From an uncultured Candidatus Rokubacteria bacterium (GTDB lineage Bacteria > Methylomirabilota > Methylomirabilia > Rokubacteriales > CSP1-6): 64,000 bases of DNA. Position numbers and translations under genes: made by a program. Below are positions 3,933 to 10,543 of the stretch, piece by piece. Within the stretch, counting starts at the first letter, position 1; every line of letters starts with the position of its first letter. The notes beneath the pieces are model-generated. The model was not told the DNA's origin and did no database searches. It was given only the letters and a program-made list of their open reading frames with translations. The stretch is from contig CAWBMV010000022.1 of assembly GCA_963789955.1 (NCBI GenBank), positions 554,471 to 618,470 on the forward strand, in the 5' to 3' direction.

Positions 3933-4042
3933 TGGAGTTCCTTCAGCGAATCGTCTCCTGATACCGGCCAGGACTCTGACCCGGCTTGCAGGGCATGTCA
4001 AGGGACCCTACACTCTGCGCGGAGTACCAGAAGGAGCGAGCG

Positions 4043-5041
4043 ATGGGCGACGTCGGTCTCATGGGCATGCATGTGCCGGGCATGTCGTGGCGCGAGACGC
4101 GCGAGGCGGCCGTACTGGCCGAGGAGCTCGGCTACAGCTGCATCACGATGGGTGAATCGTGGGGCGAGGACGCGCTGACCTCGCTGGCACAGCTCGCGGC
4201 CGTGACCTCACGCATTCGAATCGGCAGCAGCATCGTGCCGGTCTTCGCGCGCTCGCCCGCGAATCTGGCGATGACCGCGCTGAACCTCGACCGCATGAGC
4301 GGCGGACGCTTCTTCCTGGGGCTCGGCACCAGCGGCCGTCTGGTGATCGAGGACTTCCACGGCGAGAAGTTCGCGAAGCCGCTGACGCGGATGCGAGAGT
4401 ACATCGACATCGTCCGCAAGGCCGCGCGCGGCGAGCGGCTCGATCACGACGGGGAGTTCTTCCACACCAAGCGCTTCCAGCTCCGGTTCACGCCGCACCG
4501 GGCGAGCCTGCCGATCTACATCGCCGCGCTGAGCCCGCCGAGCCTGCGCATGACCGGTGAGCTCGCCGACGGCTGGCTCCCCATTTTCCTCGCACCCTCG
4601 CGCATGGCCGCGGCCGTGGTCGAGCTCGAGGCCGGGGCCGCGGCGGCCGGCCGCTCGCGGCGCGATCTCGCGATCTCGCCGCAGGTGTCGATCTACGTGA
4701 CCGACGACGTCGCGGCGGCGCGCGATCGCGAGCGACCGCACATCGCCTTTTATATCGGGGGCATGGGCGTGTTCTATCACCAGTACATGCAGCGGATCGG
4801 CTTCGGCGCCGAGGCCGACCGGGTCCGCGAGGCCTTCCAGGCGCGCGAGCGCGACCGGGCCGCGAAGCTGGTCACCGACGAGATGGTCGACGCGATGACG
4901 ATCCTCGGCTCGCCCAAGCAGTGCCGCGATCAGATCCAGCGGTTCTTCGACGCCGGCGTGCAGGAGGTCAGGCTCGTCTTCAACGAGCCCAACAAGGACG
5001 CCTACCTCACGGCGCTCCGGGCGGTCGCTCCCCGAGGCTAG
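4043..5041 (+). CDS. LLM-class flavin/F420-dependent oxidoreductase
   Basis: AEELGY...GESWGEDA, TSRIRIGSSI, SGGRFFLGLG, PIYIAA, ADGW. Confidence 0.9.
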   Translation: MGDVGLMGMHVPGMSWRETREAAVLAEELGYSCITMGESWGEDALTSLAQLAAVTSRIRIGSSIVPVFARSPANLAMTALNLDRMSGGRFFLGLGTSGRLVIEDFHGEKFAKPLTRMREYIDIVRKAARGERLDHDGEFFHTKRFQLRFTPHRASLPIYIAALSPPSLRMTGELADGWLPIFLAPSRMAAAVVELEAGAAAAGRSRRDLAISPQVSIYVTDDVAAARDRERPHIAFYIGGMGVFYHQYMQRIGFGAEADRVREAFQARERDRAAKLVTDEMVDAMTILGSPKQCRDQIQRFFDAGVQEVRLVFNEPNKDAYLTALRAVAPRG

Positions 5042-5053
5042 AGGGGTGAACCC

Positions 5054-6061
5054 ATGAAATTCGGTCTCTACAGCTCGATCGCGAATCCGCCGCGGGGCGA
5101 GCACCTCGATCGCTGCATCGACGAAACTATCGCTGAGGCCCAGCTCGCCGAAGCGAGCGGCTTCGATTCGTGTTTCTTCGGCGAGCACCATCAAGATCAC
5201 GACGGGTTCCTGCCTTCGCCGCTCATCGTCGCCACCGCCGTCGCCGCGCGCACGCACCGTCTCCGCGTCGGCACCTCGGTGATCCTGCTGCCGCTCCACC
5301 ATCCGGTGCATGTGGCCGAGGACGCAATCACCCTGGACCTCGTGTCCAAGGGGCGCCTCATCCTCGGCGTCGGCATCGGCTACCAGCCGGCCGATTTTCG
5401 CGCGTTCTCGGTGCCGATGGAGCACCGAATGACCTTGTTCGAAGAGAGCGTCGAGATCATGCGTCTCTGCTGGGCAGGGGAGACGTTTTCGTATCGAGGC
5501 AAGCACTACACACTCGAGAACGTCCAGATTCGCCCGCGGCCCTATCAGAAGTCGGGCCCGCCGCTCTGGTTCGGCGCCAGCGTGCCGGCGGCGGCGCGAC
5601 GGGCCGGCCGGCTCGCCGACGGATTCGTCGGCACGCCCAGCACCAGCCTGACGAACGCGACGGAGCTGGCCGACATATATAAGGACGCGGCGCGGACGGC
5701 CGGGCGCACGGCCGAGGTCGTGCAGATGCGCGATGCATGGGCCGCGCGCACCCGCGCGGAGGCCGACGAGGTGTACGGCCCGCACGTGATGGCCGCCTAT
5801 CGATATTACTGGGAGGCGCGGCTGGCCGAGTTCCAGAACATGCCGCCCGACACGAAGTTCACCCTGGAGAACCTGGCTCCCGACCGGTTGATCCTCGGCG
5901 ACCCCGAGGCGTGCGTGAAGGAGTTCCAGCGCTGGCAGAAGGCGACCGGCGCCAGCACCTTTCTGCTCAGGCTGCGCCACGCCCATTCGGGCGGGCCGCC
6001 GCACCCGAAGATCATGGAAGCGATCAGACTGTTCGGCGAGCGCGTTCTGCCCTATTGTTAG
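5054..6061 (+). CDS. LLM-class flavin-dependent monooxygenase
   Basis: AEASGFD...GEHH, LPSP, HHPVHVAE, LDLVSKGRLILGVGIGY, PRPYQ. Confidence 0.9.
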   Translation: MKFGLYSSIANPPRGEHLDRCIDETIAEAQLAEASGFDSCFFGEHHQDHDGFLPSPLIVATAVAARTHRLRVGTSVILLPLHHPVHVAEDAITLDLVSKGRLILGVGIGYQPADFRAFSVPMEHRMTLFEESVEIMRLCWAGETFSYRGKHYTLENVQIRPRPYQKSGPPLWFGASVPAAARRAGRLADGFVGTPSTSLTNATELADIYKDAARTAGRTAEVVQMRDAWAARTRAEADEVYGPHVMAAYRYYWEARLAEFQNMPPDTKFTLENLAPDRLILGDPEACVKEFQRWQKATGASTFLLRLRHAHSGGPPHPKIMEAIRLFGERVLPYC

Positions 6062-6100
6062 GCACGTTGTTACGCACGCCGGGGCCGATTTCGTTCGAGG

Positions 6101-6130
6101 TTGACGGTTATCGGAGCGCTTTGCTAGTGT
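6101..6130 (+). promoter_or_regulatory. Putative sigma70 promoter for the riboswitch leader
   Basis: TTGACG-18 nt-TAGTGT with TG extended -10, ending about 12 nt before riboswitch P1. Confidence 0.45.
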
Positions 6131-6142
6131 TTTTCTGTTGCG

Positions 6143-6300
6143 CGCGCCCGGGTGCCCGTTTGGGCCCAGGGAAGGCGGTGCGAATCCGCCGCGACCCCGT
6201 CACTGTAACCGGGGACGAAACCCGAAAGAGCCACTGGCGATTTGCTGGGAAGGCCCGGGGAGTAGGACGATCCGGAAGCCAGGAGACCTACCCGGGCGCG
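6143..6300 (+). ncRNA. Cobalamin (B12) riboswitch
   Basis: Conserved elements in order: GGTG, AGGGAA-GGCGGTG-CG-AATCCGCC, CCCCGTCACTGT, GCCACTG...GGGAAG, B12 box AGCCAGGAGACC; closing helix CGCGCCCGGG/CCCGGGCGCG. Confidence 0.92.
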
Positions 6301-6311
6301 AACCCGAAACC

Positions 6312-6329
6312 GGTCTTCGAGGGAGGACC
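6312..6329 (+). promoter_or_regulatory. RBS-sequestering hairpin (riboswitch expression platform)
   Basis: GGTCTTC/GAGGACC stem covers the GGAGGA Shine-Dalgarno upstream of ATG 6339. Confidence 0.55.
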
Positions 6330-6338
6330 AGGGATCAG

Positions 6339-6680
6339 ATGATCTTTCCCCAGAACGTCAGTGCGCGGCGCGCCGCGGAGGTGCTGCACCGTGTCTTCGA
6401 CGGAATTCCCGGCGGCTTTGCCTTTCGCCTCTGGGACGGATCGGTCGTGAACCTCGGTGGTGGCACGCCCGTGTGCACGGCCGTCGTTCACCAGCCGCAG
6501 ACCTTCATCCGACTCATTCGTGACCCGACGCCGCTCACCTTCGCCGAGGCCTACGTCGACGGCTCCATCGACCTCGAGGGCGATCTGTTCGACGCCATGA
6601 GCGTCGCGAACTCGATCGAAGAGATTCGCGTGCCGTTCGTGGAGCGGTTGCGCGTCCTCTTCACTCTCTGGCGTGGCTGA
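6339..6680 (+). CDS. Stand-alone N-terminal (lipid-binding) domain of Cfa-type methyltransferase
   Basis: FAFRLWDGS...PLTFAEAYVDGSIDLEGDLFDAM matches the Cfa N-terminal pattern; own stop overlaps the next start. Confidence 0.75.
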   Translation: MIFPQNVSARRAAEVLHRVFDGIPGGFAFRLWDGSVVNLGGGTPVCTAVVHQPQTFIRLIRDPTPLTFAEAYVDGSIDLEGDLFDAMSVANSIEEIRVPFVERLRVLFTLWRG

Positions 6681-7809
6681 CGTGGCCCAGCACGACGTCA
6701 TCGTGGTCGGTGGCGGGCCGGGCGGCAGCACCGCGGCATGGCGGCTCGCGCGGGCCGGCTTTCGCCCGCTGCTTCTGGACGCCGCGGTCTTTCCACGGGT
6801 GAAGATCTGCGCCGGGTGGGTCACCCCCGAAGCGCTTGCCGACGCCCAGGTCGATCCTCAGAAGTATCCGCTGACCATCCAGGCGTTCTCGGCATGCCGG
6901 TTCGAGTTCGACGGCGCGCGCACCGAGACGCGGTGGCAGCGGCCAGCCAGCTACGGGATCCTCCGCCGGGAGTTCGACCACTATCTGCTCGACCGCGCCC
7001 GCGCCGCCGGCGTCGACGTGCGCGAAGGAGCCCGGGTGACCGAGGTGGCGCAGGACGCCGACGGGATCCGGGTCGTGAGCCCGCACGGCACGTTCAGCGC
7101 GCCGCTCGTCATCGGCGCCGGGGGTCATCGCTGCCCGGTCGCTCAGGCGCTCGGGCAGGTGTCCGAGCAGGAAGAGGTCGTGATCGCGCAGGAGAGCGAG
7201 ACGCGGCTCACGCCCGAGCGCGTCGAGTCGCTCGGCAAGTGGTGGGAAGCCCCCGAGCTCTACGTCGAGCCGGATCTCAAAGGCTACGGCTGGTACTTCC
7301 CCAAGGGTGACGTCCTCAATGTCGGCGTCGGCTGCGTGTCGGGCCCCGGTGCGGATCTGCCGCGGCGGCGCGACGCGCTCGTGAGCGCGCTGCGGGCCGC
7401 GGGTCGGCTGCCGGCCGATCTCACTATCGAGCCGTTTCGCGGCCACGCCTACGTCGTGCGCCGCCGCGCGCCGCGCAAGCTCGCCGGCGACCGGTTCTGC
7501 CTCGTCGGCGACGCCGCGGGACTGGCGCGCGATCTGAGCGGCGAGGGGATCGGGCCGGCGATCAAGAGCGGGATCCTCGCCGCCGAGGCGGTCGAGGCGC
7601 GCCTGCGCACGGGCGCCGGCTTCGACGCGTATGCGGCCGCCATCGTGCGGCGGTACGGAACGGGAGAAACGGGGTGGCTCGGCCGCCAGCTCGCGCGGAT
7701 CCCCGATTCGTGGGCGCGGGTGTTCGTGCGCGCCATTCTCAACACGGAAGCCACGAGACGGCACGTCGTATTCGGACGCATCTTCGGGATGCGGGAGGTC
7801 GCATCGTGA
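6673..7809 (+). CDS. Geranylgeranyl-reductase-family FAD-dependent oxidoreductase
   Basis: DVIVVGGGPGGS, FPRVKICAG, RREFDHYL, GYGWYFPKG, LVGDAAG, GEGIGPAIKSG. Confidence 0.85.
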   Translation: MADVAQHDVIVVGGGPGGSTAAWRLARAGFRPLLLDAAVFPRVKICAGWVTPEALADAQVDPQKYPLTIQAFSACRFEFDGARTETRWQRPASYGILRREFDHYLLDRARAAGVDVREGARVTEVAQDADGIRVVSPHGTFSAPLVIGAGGHRCPVAQALGQVSEQEEVVIAQESETRLTPERVESLGKWWEAPELYVEPDLKGYGWYFPKGDVLNVGVGCVSGPGADLPRRRDALVSALRAAGRLPADLTIEPFRGHAYVVRRRAPRKLAGDRFCLVGDAAGLARDLSGEGIGPAIKSGILAAEAVEARLRTGAGFDAYAAAIVRRYGTGETGWLGRQLARIPDSWARVFVRAILNTEATRRHVVFGRIFGMREVAS

Positions 7810-8711
7810 GGGCACGCAGCAAGGAAGCGGACGCCAAGGCGATCTCGCACCACTACGACGTCTCCAACGAGTTCTACGCGCTGTTCCTCGACCCGCTGAT
7901 GGTCTACACCTGCGCCTACTATCGCGATCCCGACGGCAAGCTCGAGCAGGCCCAGCGCGACAAGCTCGAGCTGGTGTGCCGCAAGCTCGAGCTCGAGGCG
8001 GGCGAGACGTTGCTCGACATCGGGTGCGGCTGGGGCAGCCTGTCGATCTGGGCGGCCCAGCACTACGGGGTGCGCGCCCACGGCGTGACCCTGTCGAAGG
8101 CACAGGCCGACTACGCGACCGAGCGCATCCGCCAGGAAGGGCTCGAGGACCGCTGCAAGGTCGAATATCGGGACTACCGCGATCTGCCGCCGGACGTGCG
8201 CTTCGACAAGATCGCCGCGGTCGGGGTGATCGAGCACGTCGGCATTCCGAACTATCCCGCGTTCTTCGGCGGCGTTCACCGGATGTTGCGGGACGGCGGC
8301 CTCTATCTGAATCACGGCATCGTTCACGAGTTCCACTGGAAGGCGAGCAGCCAGACCGAGTTCCTCTATCGCCACGTCTTCCCGAACGGCGATCTGGCGG
8401 GGCTCAGCGAGACGATCACCGAGATCGAGCGCGCCGGCTTCGAGATCGTGGACGTCGAGGGGCTGCGGCTGCACTACGCGCGGACCTGCCGCCACTGGGT
8501 CGAGCGCCTGCGCGAGCGGGCCGACGAGGCGCGCGCGCTGGCCGGCGAGCGGACGTACCGGACCTGGCTTCTCTACCTGACGTGCTCGGCGGTCGCGTTT
8601 GCCGAGAGCTCCATCGGGCTCTACCAGGTCCTGACCAGAAAACAGCATGATCCCGTCGTGACTCGCGCGCCACACACGCGCGAGCACCTATACGGCAAGG
8701 CATTCCTGTGA
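7806..8711 (+). CDS. cfa: Cyclopropane-fatty-acyl-phospholipid synthase family methyltransferase, catalytic domain only
   Basis: ISHHYDVSNEFY, MVYTCAYY, LLDIGCGWG, GVTLSKAQ, IEHVG, VFPNG, HYART; GTG overlaps the upstream stop. Confidence 0.88.
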   Translation: MRARSKEADAKAISHHYDVSNEFYALFLDPLMVYTCAYYRDPDGKLEQAQRDKLELVCRKLELEAGETLLDIGCGWGSLSIWAAQHYGVRAHGVTLSKAQADYATERIRQEGLEDRCKVEYRDYRDLPPDVRFDKIAAVGVIEHVGIPNYPAFFGGVHRMLRDGGLYLNHGIVHEFHWKASSQTEFLYRHVFPNGDLAGLSETITEIERAGFEIVDVEGLRLHYARTCRHWVERLRERADEARALAGERTYRTWLLYLTCSAVAFAESSIGLYQVLTRKQHDPVVTRAPHTREHLYGKAFL

Positions 8712-8736
8712 CCCAACGACCGGAAAGGAAGATGCG

Positions 8737-9477
8737 TTGACTCGTCAGATCTTGATCATCACGATCGCGTCGTTCGTCCTGGCGGAGATTTCCACCTTCG
8801 CGACCTCCATCTATCTGCACCGCGCGCTGGCGCACCGATCGCTGTCCCTGCAGCCGGTGACGGCCCTGCTGTTCCGCGCGGCGCTCTGGCTCCTGACCGG
8901 TCAGAGCCAGCAGCAGTGGGTGGCGGTCCACCGTAAGCACCACACGTTCACCGACCGCGACGGCGACCCGCACAGTCCGCTGCTCCTGGGCTTCTGGAAG
9001 GTGCAGCTGTGGAACGCGTACTACTACATCCGCGAGGCCCGGCAGCCCAAGACCGTGGAGACCTTCGCGCCCGATCTGGCCCCCGACTGGTGGGAACGGC
9101 GCGTGTTCTCGTGGGGCTGGACCGGCCTCTTCCTCGGCACCGCGCTCGTCATGCTCGCCATCGGCTGGTGGCAGGGCATCCTGGCCATGATCGGCCACGG
9201 CATCATCTATATGTTCATCCTGGCGCCGCTGATCAACGGCCTCGGCCACTGGGCGGGCGGCCAGAACTTCCAGAACACGGCCTACAACTCGCGCGTGCTC
9301 GCGTGGCTGACCGGCGGCGAGAGCCTGCACAACAACCACCACGCGTTTCCGCGCTCGCCGAAGTTCAGCTTGCGGCGCTCGGAGCTCGATCCCTCGTGGG
9401 TCGCGATCCGGCTGCTGGCTGCCTTGCGTCTGGTGGCGATCGTCGGGGCGCCGCTGCGGGCGCGGACGACGCGCTAG
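8737..9477 (+). CDS. Membrane fatty-acid desaturase (delta-9/acyl-CoA type)
   Basis: Three His boxes HRALAH, HRKHH, HNNHH; GDPHSP; transmembrane segments. Confidence 0.9.
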   Translation: MTRQILIITIASFVLAEISTFATSIYLHRALAHRSLSLQPVTALLFRAALWLLTGQSQQQWVAVHRKHHTFTDRDGDPHSPLLLGFWKVQLWNAYYYIREARQPKTVETFAPDLAPDWWERRVFSWGWTGLFLGTALVMLAIGWWQGILAMIGHGIIYMFILAPLINGLGHWAGGQNFQNTAYNSRVLAWLTGGESLHNNHHAFPRSPKFSLRRSELDPSWVAIRLLAALRLVAIVGAPLRARTTR

Positions 9478-9484
9478 GACGGCG

Positions 9485-10543
9485 ATGGCGCCTCCGCCGC
9501 TCGAGCTGAGTCTCGAGCTCTCGGCGCGCGAGCGCTTCGAGATGGTCGAGCTGCGCTCGCGCTTCTCGAGCGAGCACGCCGACTCGCTCGCGTCGTATCC
9601 GCGGTGCCTCTACTGGTCGGCCCACACGACGGCCGGGTTCCTGGATCGCAGCCTGATCAGGGACCTGGACTCCGACCACATTTCCACCTACATCGAGACC
9701 TTGCGCCAGATCTTCCCGGAGGGCGCGGGGTACGCGCACGACCGGCTGGAGCGCCGCAAGGATCTCGACGCCGCCCAGCGCGCGGTCGAGCCGCGCAACG
9801 GCGACTCGCACCTGGCCTTCATCACCGGCGGGCTCCAGCCGTGCGTGACCCACCCGAACCGCGCCGGCGAGTCCGTGTGTTTCGTCGACCTCGACGGCGT
9901 CAACGACGGGCGGCCGCGCCGCCGCCAGACGCGCGTGATCGGTTTCCATCGCGAGATGGTCGCCGGGCAGATGCGCCTGCGGGTGCCGCTCTCCGGGCAT
10001 TCGATCGACTCGGTCAATCTCAAGAGCCCGGCGCTCGGTCTCTACGACCAGCTTGCCGAGTTCGTGGCGCGCTCCGATGTGGACAAGGGCCGGCTCCACA
10101 TCGCGCTCGGCCGCGGCGAGCGAGATGCCGCGCTGACGATCAACGAGTTCGAGACGCTCCTGATGAAGAACGACCTGGCCGCCGTGCTGAAGAACCCGCT
10201 CCGGTTCATGGCGGAGGAGTACCGGCAGGCGCTGGCCAACCCCCGCGCGGTGCCCGGCAAGGCGCTCGGCTACGCGCAGTACGATCTGGTCCGCGTGCTC
10301 AACACCGGCCTCAAGACGCTCGGCCTGCACGGCTCCGTGCTGGAGCGGGTGCTCGCCCGCACCCTGGCGGTGCCCGTGGCCCGAATGTTTCGCGTGAGGC
10401 GGTCGATCAGCGTGCTGGTGGCCGGTGATGGAAGCCGCTCCGGCCCCGTCGAGGGCGTTTATCAGAGCCCGATCCTGATCCAGTGGCAGCGCGCGCCTCG
10501 AGACCTGCGCGAGCTCGACGTCACGCTGTATCGGCTCGAGTAG
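9485..10543 (+). CDS. Hypothetical protein with tandem YjbQ/UPF0047-like domains
   Basis: N-half HTTAG, YAHD, NGDSHL, FVDLDG..RPRRR; C-half ALTINE, SISVLV, GVYQSPILIQW. Confidence 0.55.
   Translation: MAPPPLELSLELSARERFEMVELRSRFSSEHADSLASYPRCLYWSAHTTAGFLDRSLIRDLDSDHISTYIETLRQIFPEGAGYAHDRLERRKDLDAAQRAVEPRNGDSHLAFITGGLQPCVTHPNRAGESVCFVDLDGVNDGRPRRRQTRVIGFHREMVAGQMRLRVPLSGHSIDSVNLKSPALGLYDQLAEFVARSDVDKGRLHIALGRGERDAALTINEFETLLMKNDLAAVLKNPLRFMAEEYRQALANPRAVPGKALGYAQYDLVRVLNTGLKTLGLHGSVLERVLARTLAVPVARMFRVRRSISVLVAGDGSRSGPVEGVYQSPILIQWQRAPRDLRELDVTLYRLE

Follow-up and report, generated by a model that had tools for sequence, protein, structure and literature searches.

We analysed a 64-kb stretch of DNA from a Rokubacteria genome (the window), in which a predicted cobalamin (B12) riboswitch heads five genes, g1 to g5, that overlap or follow one another closely. 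The genes encode a free-standing N-terminal domain of the Cfa type, an FAD reductase of the geranylgeranyl-reductase (GGR) family, a Cfa-type methyltransferase that uses S-adenosylmethionine (SAM), a membrane desaturase with histidine boxes and a double-length YjbQ-like protein, and they are listed with the elements of the leader in Table 1. Coordinates are window positions throughout, and L### and G### are the labels of this analysis for loci and genomes. The original prediction had named the five families, a canonical B12 riboswitch and a hairpin holding the ribosome-binding site (RBS), and had remarked that no gene for B12 transport or synthesis is among the five; profile and structure searches, including a covariance-model search with Rfam, bore out each of these statements, the one on g5 by fold.

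Table 1. Leader elements and genes of the array
Feature	Position	Strand	Basis
Promoter-like stretch	6101-6130	+	TTGACG 6101-6106, TGCTAGTGT 6122-6130, immediately 5' of aptamer
Cobalamin riboswitch aptamer, full length, with P6 extension region	6133-6309	+	Rfam RF00174, 116.1 bits
Expression-platform hairpin	6312-6329	+	Sequence, minimum-free-energy fold
g1, free-standing Cfa/TmpB N-terminal domain, 113 aa	6339-6680	+	Pfam DUF7884, 37.2 bits (cut-off 27)
g2, TmpA-like FAD reductase, GGR family, 378 aa	6673-7809	+	TIGR02032, 186.5 (cut-off 158.8)
g3, TmpB-like SAM methyltransferase domain, 301 aa	7806-8711	+	Pfam CMAS, 310 bits
g4, short membrane fatty-acid desaturase, 246 aa	8737-9477	+	Pfam FA_desaturase, 67.1 (cut-off 29.7)
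g5, 352-aa double-length protein, YjbQ/UPF0047 fold in N-terminal half	9485-10543	+	AlphaFold model, Foldseek

The overlap between g1 and g2 is 8 nt, g2 and g3 share the letters GTGA, 25 nt separate g3 from g4, and 7 nt separate g4 from g5. The TIGR02032 score of g2 lies above the curated cut-off, which upholds the earlier assignment of the reductase to the GGR family rather than to the BfaA type. The g2 translation also contains a YxWxFP...GxG stretch (GYGWYFPKGDVLNVGVG), which we take to be a hallmark of GGR enzymes, and it matches the MenJ and BchP models of NCBIfam weakly. g3 is the only strong CMAS gene of the genome. The genome has four genes of the desaturase family. g4, with the His boxes HRALAH, HRKHH and HNNHH (read from the translation), is one of them and belongs, as a membrane di-iron, O2-dependent desaturase, to the same broad family as the ole1-type enzymes. 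Sequence matches of g5 stay under the cut-offs (Pfam UPF0047, 23.4 against 27; TIGR00149, 17.9 against 67.75). Its AlphaFold model (predicted local distance difference test score 81, built on 40 relatives) matched 12 YjbQ-family entries in Foldseek with E of 1e-7 to 4e-5 and target template-modelling scores of 0.57-0.73, a clear match of fold, over the N-terminal half only.

The aptamer spans model positions 1-189 of 189, with the B12 box GCCACUGG aligned, scores far above the gathering threshold of 31.5 bits (E 2e-28) and is the single Rfam match within the whole window. In the platform hairpin, seven base pairs join GGTCTTC (6312-6318) to GAGGACC (6323-6329), and a Shine-Dalgarno-like GGGAGGA (6321-6327) occupies the loop and the 3' arm, 12 nt ahead of the g1 ATG. 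Because the hairpin holds this sequence and a promoter and terminator scan found no terminator-like site in the leader, translational control appears the likelier mode of the switch. By analogy with known translational cobalamin switches, B12 binding would sequester the RBS, giving OFF logic. The stretch at 6101-6130 is a putative promoter: the consensus promoter scan made no call there, and the stretch is kept when related leaders, and the cobU-like leader from this genome, are aligned with it; both also have the platform hairpin.

Contigs from RNA libraries, from four runs in three studies, match the operon at 93-100% identity, and the listed pieces bridge the aptamer and g1, g1 and g2, g3 and g4, and g4 and g5. 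Such libraries may hold DNA, and a contig is not a transcript and gives no start, end, strand or level, so that they offer a hint of operon expression and nothing firmer. Cover in these libraries is low at 5967-6133, which is not evidence either way.

Relation of g1, g2 and g3 to tmpBA

Two routes to 10-methyl fatty acids are set out in the sections of Blitzblau et al. (2021; PMC7791843) used here: bfaAB in actinomycetes and tmpBA in Desulfobacteraceae, Marinobacter and Thiohalospira. According to these sections, TmpB is a Cfa-like enzyme that gave 10-methylene palmitate in E. coli and yeast, its assayed relatives use C14-C18 acyl chains, and TmpA is a putative methylene reductase that resembles archaeal geranylgeranyl reductases and has no meaningful homology to BfaA. 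We compared the window with locus L198, whose TmpA is identical over its first 90 residues to the T. halophila TmpA in the portion of the PMC7791843 supplement that prints it. Over 382 columns g2 is 40% identical to the L198 TmpA (E 1e-67), g3 has 37% identity to residues 114-401 of the L198 TmpB (E 2e-63), and g1 matches residues 34-83 of the same protein weakly but in colinear order (30% identity, E 0.003). A stretch FPRxKxCAGW(V/I)TP is common to g2, the printed TmpA sequences and 14 stored homologues, and paralogues of g2 within its own genome are weaker than E 1e-30. The best 120 matches of a protein search with g2 were all at least 75% identical, and no named TmpA was among them.

We sampled 401 gammaproteobacterial genomes, from the class of a Steroidobacteraceae locus, and found a near-full-length g2 homologue of 35-47% identity in 46 of them. 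At all 14 of the g2-homologue loci retrieved, a full-length Cfa-like gene lies directly upstream on the same strand, as in the tmpB-tmpA arrangement; in five of them the N-domain was detected by tblastn. A quick maximum-likelihood tree of the methyltransferases has long branches, and its key forks carry supports of 85-89. In it the g3 proteins of Rokubacteria form a clade (support 98) whose sister group (support 89) consists of two reductase-linked methyltransferases from Gammaproteobacteria. Of seven Cfa paralogues from the same gammaproteobacterial genomes, presumed to stand alone, five fall outside the reductase-linked groups. The other two, at L205 (G447:C1) and L207 (G606:C8), are second methyltransferases that lie apart from the g2-like reductase gene and fall inside the main TmpB clade. 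Distant GGR paralogues elsewhere in the phylum (L215-L219) were considered as tmp-type and rejected, as they have no Cfa-like neighbour.

Conservation of the array was followed in 251 genomes of the phylum, with 158 genomes of the window's family in the g2 tally. The unpublished genomes G217, G076 and G216 are counted within the phylum tallies of g2, riboswitch and HpnR, and none of our individual claims depends on them. At E<=1e-30, g2 has a match in 96 of the 158 family genomes, about 90 of which have clear orthologues (roughly 63% identity or above); outside the family clear orthologues are almost absent from the phylum, other families having only relatives of 33-47% identity. The 10-methyl-C16 lipids that Methylomirabilis presumably contains could not be tied to the g1-g5 operon. 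g1 adjoins g2 in all 79 stretches in which tblastn located g1, and the trio of g1, g2 and g3 is conserved in about 80 genomes. All eight distant family loci that were fetched whole hold the trio alone, without g4 or g5 nearby, and L182, from a sister family, has the canonical order of N-domain and methyltransferase followed by reductase.

The last two genes of the array also occur apart from the trio. The 80 loci anchored on g5 comprise 21 five-gene arrays, all from Rokubacteria, three loci with g4-g5 alone, 55 with g5 alone and one that is incomplete, and in G131 g4-g5 lies 1.16 Mb from g1-g2-g3 on the same contig. Because the distant loci hold only the trio and g4-g5 is found elsewhere, the five-gene operon is a fusion of two modules, g1-g2-g3 and g4-g5; and because most relatives carry g1-g2-g3 only, g5 is dispensable for the core. 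The 55 loci with g5 alone come from Acidobacteriota, Rhodothermales, KSB1 and others, in varied contexts. Among 38 flanking open reading frames (ORFs) at 11 loci outside Rokubacteria, Pfam gave no conserved partner of g5, and no riboswitch was found at 11 such loci. g5 itself defines a conserved family of proteins some 350 aa long (41-92% identity, with HTTAG and NxDxHL invariant), whose C-terminal half matches no assigned fold or family; the family has no Pfam entry of its own and occurs in metagenome-assembled genomes of Rokubacteria, Acidobacteriota, Rhodothermales, KSB1 and Calditrichota. The next gene 3' of g5 is a convergent DinB-family gene. Directly upstream of the riboswitch lie two genes for luciferase-like oxidoreductases (F420-type LLM; 3986-6061, +), the second of which is kept at the same place in relatives; in L005, g5 directly follows it, without g1-g4.

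Because of the homology to the L198 operon, the tmpB-tmpA loci and the placement in the tree, g1 and g3 are, as judged from sequence, a TmpB split in two, and g2 is a TmpA. As in tmpBA, a Cfa-family SAM methyltransferase homologous to TmpB adjoins a GGR-like flavoprotein homologous to TmpA. In tmpBA a one-piece TmpB is followed by tmpA, whereas in the window the order is N-domain, reductase, methyltransferase, with tmpA between the two TmpB genes, and one Rokubacteria subclade also has a desaturase gene and a YjbQ-fold gene at the end of the array. The operon holds both domains of the E. coli-type two-domain Cfa, the N-domain (DUF7884) and the CMAS catalytic domain, but in separate genes 1.1 kb apart and coupled to a reductase. 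The enzymology is of a known, barely studied kind. The original prediction had held that no pathway with this architecture was described, and this has to be withdrawn, as tmpBA already joins a Cfa-like methyltransferase to a GGR-like reductase; its proposed succession of desaturation, methylene transfer and reduction fits the homology to tmpBA, but is not undescribed. The bfaAB/tmsAB pathway to tuberculostearic acid in actinomycetes, reportedly described by Machida in 2017, has in common with this scheme the methylene transfer to a delta-9 acyl chain and the flavin-dependent reduction that follows. It differs in the reductase family, g2 being a GGR-family (TIGR02032) protein and not of the BfaA type, as judged from the statement in the sections of PMC7791843 used here rather than from a BfaA sequence.

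The homology of g2 and g3 to an operon with an assayed methyltransferase, together with the conserved linkage of the trio, leads us to regard it as reasonably probable that the window encodes a tmpBA-type pathway to mid-chain (C10) methyl-branched fatty acids, in a five-gene operon behind a cobalamin OFF-riboswitch. What the sequences show is the riboswitch, the gene families, the homology to tmpBA, the linkage of g1, g2 and g3 and the patchy distribution of the switch; the product, by way of the established chemistry of the families, the OFF logic and any reason for the B12 control are inferred. At low cobalamin the aptamer would be empty, the RBS in the platform hairpin would be usable and g1 would be translated, with g2-g5 translationally coupled through their overlaps or very short gaps. 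The desaturase g4, depending on O2, would introduce a cis double bond, probably at delta-9, into the acyl chains of phospholipids; g1 and g3 together would add the methyl group of SAM to give a 10-methylene chain, and g2 would reduce the methylene to a 10-methyl branch. At high cobalamin the liganded aptamer would keep the RBS hairpin shut and the operon silent.

Several observations weigh against this reading. The reduction assigned to TmpA has never been demonstrated, and the protein was inactive in both E. coli and yeast, according to the sections of PMC7791843 used here. Sequence cannot separate Cfa-type enzymes that form methylene chains from those that form cyclopropanes, and the tree is quick and long-branched. 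g4 reaches 197.9 bits against the DesA-family model NF049918, whose cut-off is 400, covering profile positions 9-240 of 385 (NCBIfam), and delta-9 is only its probable regiospecificity. g5 is without an assigned step and was not found in four of five three-gene genomes searched, in which g4-like desaturases lie elsewhere. The g2/g3 junction is unbridged among the listed RNA-library pieces, which in itself is not evidence. Both cobalamin binding by the riboswitch and its OFF logic are predictions, and the switch, as described below, is a minority feature of the homologous operons.

It might also be supposed that g1 and g3 carry out ordinary cyclopropane synthesis and that g2 acts on another substrate, such as an isoprenoid quinone or a hopanoid side chain, in the manner of MenJ and other GGR enzymes. 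The best NCBIfam names of g3 are indeed cyclopropane synthases, CfaB (NF040703, 342.3 bits) and the E. coli-type enzyme (NF008686, 250.5 bits), the weak matches of g2 to MenJ and BchP point the same way, and the activity of TmpA is unproven. But all NCBIfam scores of g3 for cyclopropane synthases lie below the cut-offs (650, 400 and 700), which leaves it outside the equivalogs NF040703 (cut-off 650) and NF008686 (cut-off 400); the reductase gene sits between the methyltransferase halves with overlapping stops and starts, in a trio kept in so many genomes; and TmpB relatives with the same partner gave 10-methylene, not cyclopropane, acids in the experiments covered by the sections of PMC7791843 used here. 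We consider cyclopropane synthesis improbable.

Very improbable, in our judgement, is a substrate other than a phospholipid acyl chain, such as the olefin of a hopanoid, polyprenyl or polyketide chain. The usual targets of GGR-family enzymes are isoprenoid double bonds, and the genome makes hopanoids (HpnR, HpnJ), but g4 belongs to the acyl-lipid/acyl-CoA desaturase family, the N-domain in g1 is that of the Cfa enzymes that act on phospholipids, and the assayed TmpB relatives act on acyl chains (PMC7791843, the same sections).

Distribution and origin of the riboswitch

Regions upstream of g2 were taken from 80 genomes. The stretch of L141 is only 105 nt long, and it, L163 and L167 have too little sequence upstream of g1 for the leader to be judged, leaving 77 usable stretches. 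A leader-profile search found a full riboswitch in seven of these (G108, G104, G212, G164, G162, G098 and G163), the 5' part only in three (G095, G102 and G103) and no match in 67; when 20 of the 67 were searched with Rfam at E<=0.1, no cobalamin match was obtained. With the window, G226 and G227, which are intact, and G245, which is switch-less, the set comes to 81 homologous operons, and the riboswitch is intact in 10 of them. None of the 14 gammaproteobacterial tmpBA loci had a riboswitch by Rfam in the 250-600 nt upstream of tmpB that were covered. The 21 named five-gene loci were all scanned with Rfam as well: a full riboswitch precedes g1 in six (L004, L041, L040, L011, L036 and L047), and L003 has an aptamer stump of 32 bits. 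The named loci and the genome-handle collections are largely the same species, and their counts are not additive. The original prediction had staked itself on conservation of the switch in homologous operons, with absence counting against it; the switch is missing from 71 of the 81 operons and from all 14 of the gammaproteobacterial loci, so that the adverse outcome is largely the one observed. In G098 the switch stands ahead of a three-gene operon, and it is therefore not tied to g4-g5.

Alignment of close relatives revealed that L001, L002 and L003 retain the first 30-90 nt of the aptamer, with differing end points and the rest gone, and 5' stumps were also found in L096, L106 and L107. With at most one mismatch allowed, 11 close relatives lacking the switch have the motif TGCTAGTGT 8-118 nt ahead of g1; in five of seven intact leaders its distance from g1 is 243-358 nt, and it was found in none of 49 distant stretches, about 0.05 matches per stretch being expected by chance. 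At least one cobalamin riboswitch is present in 145 of 151 family genomes, and genomes that lost the tmp switch keep others. The plain reading of these sequences would be one acquisition in the ancestor of the subclade, followed by many deletions of the aptamer that spared the promoter-like motif. B12 control thus looks real but patchy, and often discarded.

Over 279 aligned columns, the leader of the window (6101-6380) shares 73% identity with the cobU-like leader of its own genome; its identity to the TonB-receptor leader is 53%, and to the tmp leaders of other species 65-79%. The window and cobU leaders have in common a TGCTA motif, the aptamer and the platform hairpin CCGGTCTTCGAGGGAGGACC, and their start codons fall at the same position. 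Related tmp leaders contain a short upstream ORF (uORF), read by eye, that begins right after the Shine-Dalgarno-like sequence of the hairpin. It has 11-12 codons in L004 (2785-2865) and L040 (2777-2853), where its TGA overlaps the g1 ATG (ATGA), and about 21 codons in L036 and L041, and its start, again by eye, is aligned with the cobU ATG or at most 2 nt off. A deletion of about 30 nt in the window places the hairpin directly before g1, and the uORF is gone. The identity to the cobU leader and the alignment of the uORF starts with the cobU ATG suggest that the leader of a cob operon, together with its first codons, was copied to a position ahead of the tmp operon.

If so, the copy may have served to supply a promoter, B12 repression being a by-product that is now being lost; this is possible, though we hold it to be doubtful. 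The closeness to the cobU rather than to the TonB-receptor leader, the uORF starts, the differing 3' deletions that leave 5' stumps, the promoter-like motif kept close to g1 in switch-less relatives and the retention of other cobalamin riboswitches would all be expected of such a passenger. Ten species, on the other hand, keep the aptamer (Rfam 96-116 bits, or leader profile 122-157 bits) despite proteins at 61-76% identity. Across nine orthologous leaders, whose g1 proteins are 61-86% identical between species, the aptamer core is near-invariant and the flanks are variable, and compensatory changes occur at 5 of 46 predicted aptamer pairs; the aptamer therefore looks to be under selection where it is retained, which argues for selection on B12 sensing. 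In addition, the parts of Kazanov et al. (2007; PMC2211319) used here describe a B12 riboswitch ahead of an ole1-type desaturase in a metagenome, a sample unrelated to ours.

Cobalamin and the lipid context of the genome

The source genome (6.77 Mb, 87% complete) has three cobalamin riboswitches including that of the window. The other two lie at G000:C37 257321-257509 (-) and 262173-262376 (-); by eye, the first precedes ORFs that look like CobU (adenosylcobinamide kinase), a nucleotide-loop gene and an ABC permease, and the second precedes ORFs that resemble TonB-dependent receptors in translation. The genome encodes MetH, two acyl-CoA-mutase B12 subunits and a corrinoid protein. It also encodes the hopanoid C-3 methylase HpnR (G000:C22 169839-171380, +; 890 bits against a cut-off of 650) and HpnJ (G000:C18 2973-5045, -; 765 bits), and the organism probably makes 3-methylhopanoids. 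Five further proteins are B12-binding radical-SAM enzymes, one of the CUAEP type and four without family assignment. The first (G000:C1 272861-274393, -) belongs to the radical-SAM (seleno)protein family with a CUAEP/CCAEP tail (664 bits against 500). Around the four others, only one neighbourhood contains lipid-type genes, and nothing there is decisive: a 361-aa B12-binding radical-SAM protein (G000:C34 426943-428025, -; L220:5444-6526) is encoded immediately downstream of two genes for acyl-CoA dehydrogenases, and a PAP2-family gene lies farther upstream; the protein may be a lipid-related B12 enzyme. No FabA was found in this 87%-complete genome. There are 24 weak matches (at most 103 bits) to the MetE C-terminal family PF01717, several of them on C22; the pattern suggests an enlarged family of short proteins related to MetE, not a canonical MetE.

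The B12 control could be explained if the operon were a B12-independent backup for lipid methylation, repressed whenever HpnR or another B12 radical-SAM enzyme is at work, by the logic of metE/metH and nrdAB/nrdJ. The B12 enzymes listed above, and the one radical-SAM gene that adjoins two acyl-CoA dehydrogenase genes, count in favour of such a backup, and HpnR is encoded in eight of the nine riboswitch-bearing family genomes covered. The same isozyme logic was proposed for the desaturase in the parts of Kazanov et al. (2007; PMC2211319) used here. It may also operate within the clade, as class I ribonucleotide reductase (RNR) genes at related loci appear to stand behind a further cobalamin riboswitch: L009 (10688-10899, -) and L015 (10669-10879, -) have a second riboswitch downstream of g5 on the opposite strand, and in the similarly arranged L006 an RNR small-chain gene (7066-7923, -) lies on that strand just beyond g5, which is probably classical B12 repression of class I RNR. 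Against a backup role, HpnR occurs in 77 of 151 family genomes and in most switch-less operon carriers, so that the co-occurrence with a B12 lipid methylase, which the original prediction had proposed as a check, is present in this genome but does not discriminate. A 3-methylhopanoid and a 10-methyl acyl chain are different products, no B12-dependent acyl-chain methylase or desaturase was identified, and most homologous operons are without the switch, which was deleted repeatedly. We regard a backup role as unlikely.

A broader form of this idea is that these bacteria tune their membrane lipids with B12 in a way not yet recognised, through HpnR and 3-methylhopanoids or through a B12 radical-SAM enzyme acting on acyl chains, and that the operon is the O2- and SAM-dependent substitute that needs no B12. 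This is a speculative and rather unlikely proposal; if true, membrane-lipid branching would join methionine synthesis and ribonucleotide reduction as processes with B12-dependent and B12-independent twins. The operon consumes SAM, the clear methionine synthase is the B12-dependent MetH, and the presence of MetE is unclear, so that induction at low B12 is not obviously economical, which runs against intuition on the backup and the passenger reading alike.

With the metE and nrdAB regulons of B12, and with the desaturase of Kazanov et al., the window shares an RF00174 aptamer before genes that neither make nor import B12. Unlike in those regulons, none of g1-g5 has a known B12-dependent counterpart, and the switch was added recently, is confined to one clade and has often been deleted. 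In our literature searches we met no account of B12 control for an operon of the Cfa/TmpB type (the B12-element list in supplementary file 3 of Kazanov et al. was outside their cover) and no paper joining cobalamin riboswitch, cyclopropane and desaturase; the relevant papers were those of Kazanov et al. and Blitzblau et al. only.

Returning to the tmpBA-type reading, the novelty of this locus lies in three features: tmpA stands between the halves of a split TmpB, a desaturase/YjbQ module has been joined to the trio, and a B12 riboswitch heads the array. The position of tmpA between the halves of its partner, with a dedicated desaturase in one subclade, is strong genomic support for the pairing of TmpA with TmpB, and the array is a compact natural cassette for the proposed methylene reductase of the only known non-actinomycete 10-methyl route. 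10-Methyl C16 acids serve as environmental biomarkers, and the candidate producers of 10-methyl acids widen to the carriers of pair homologues, which include 96 of the 158 genomes in one Rokubacteria family and 46 of the 401 Gammaproteobacteria sampled. A cobalamin riboswitch on lipid-modifying genes is unusual, and together with the desaturase case of 2007 it raises the question of a B12-dependent lipid process. The locus also illustrates how a riboswitch may be copied from a cob leader, retained in some species and excised in others.

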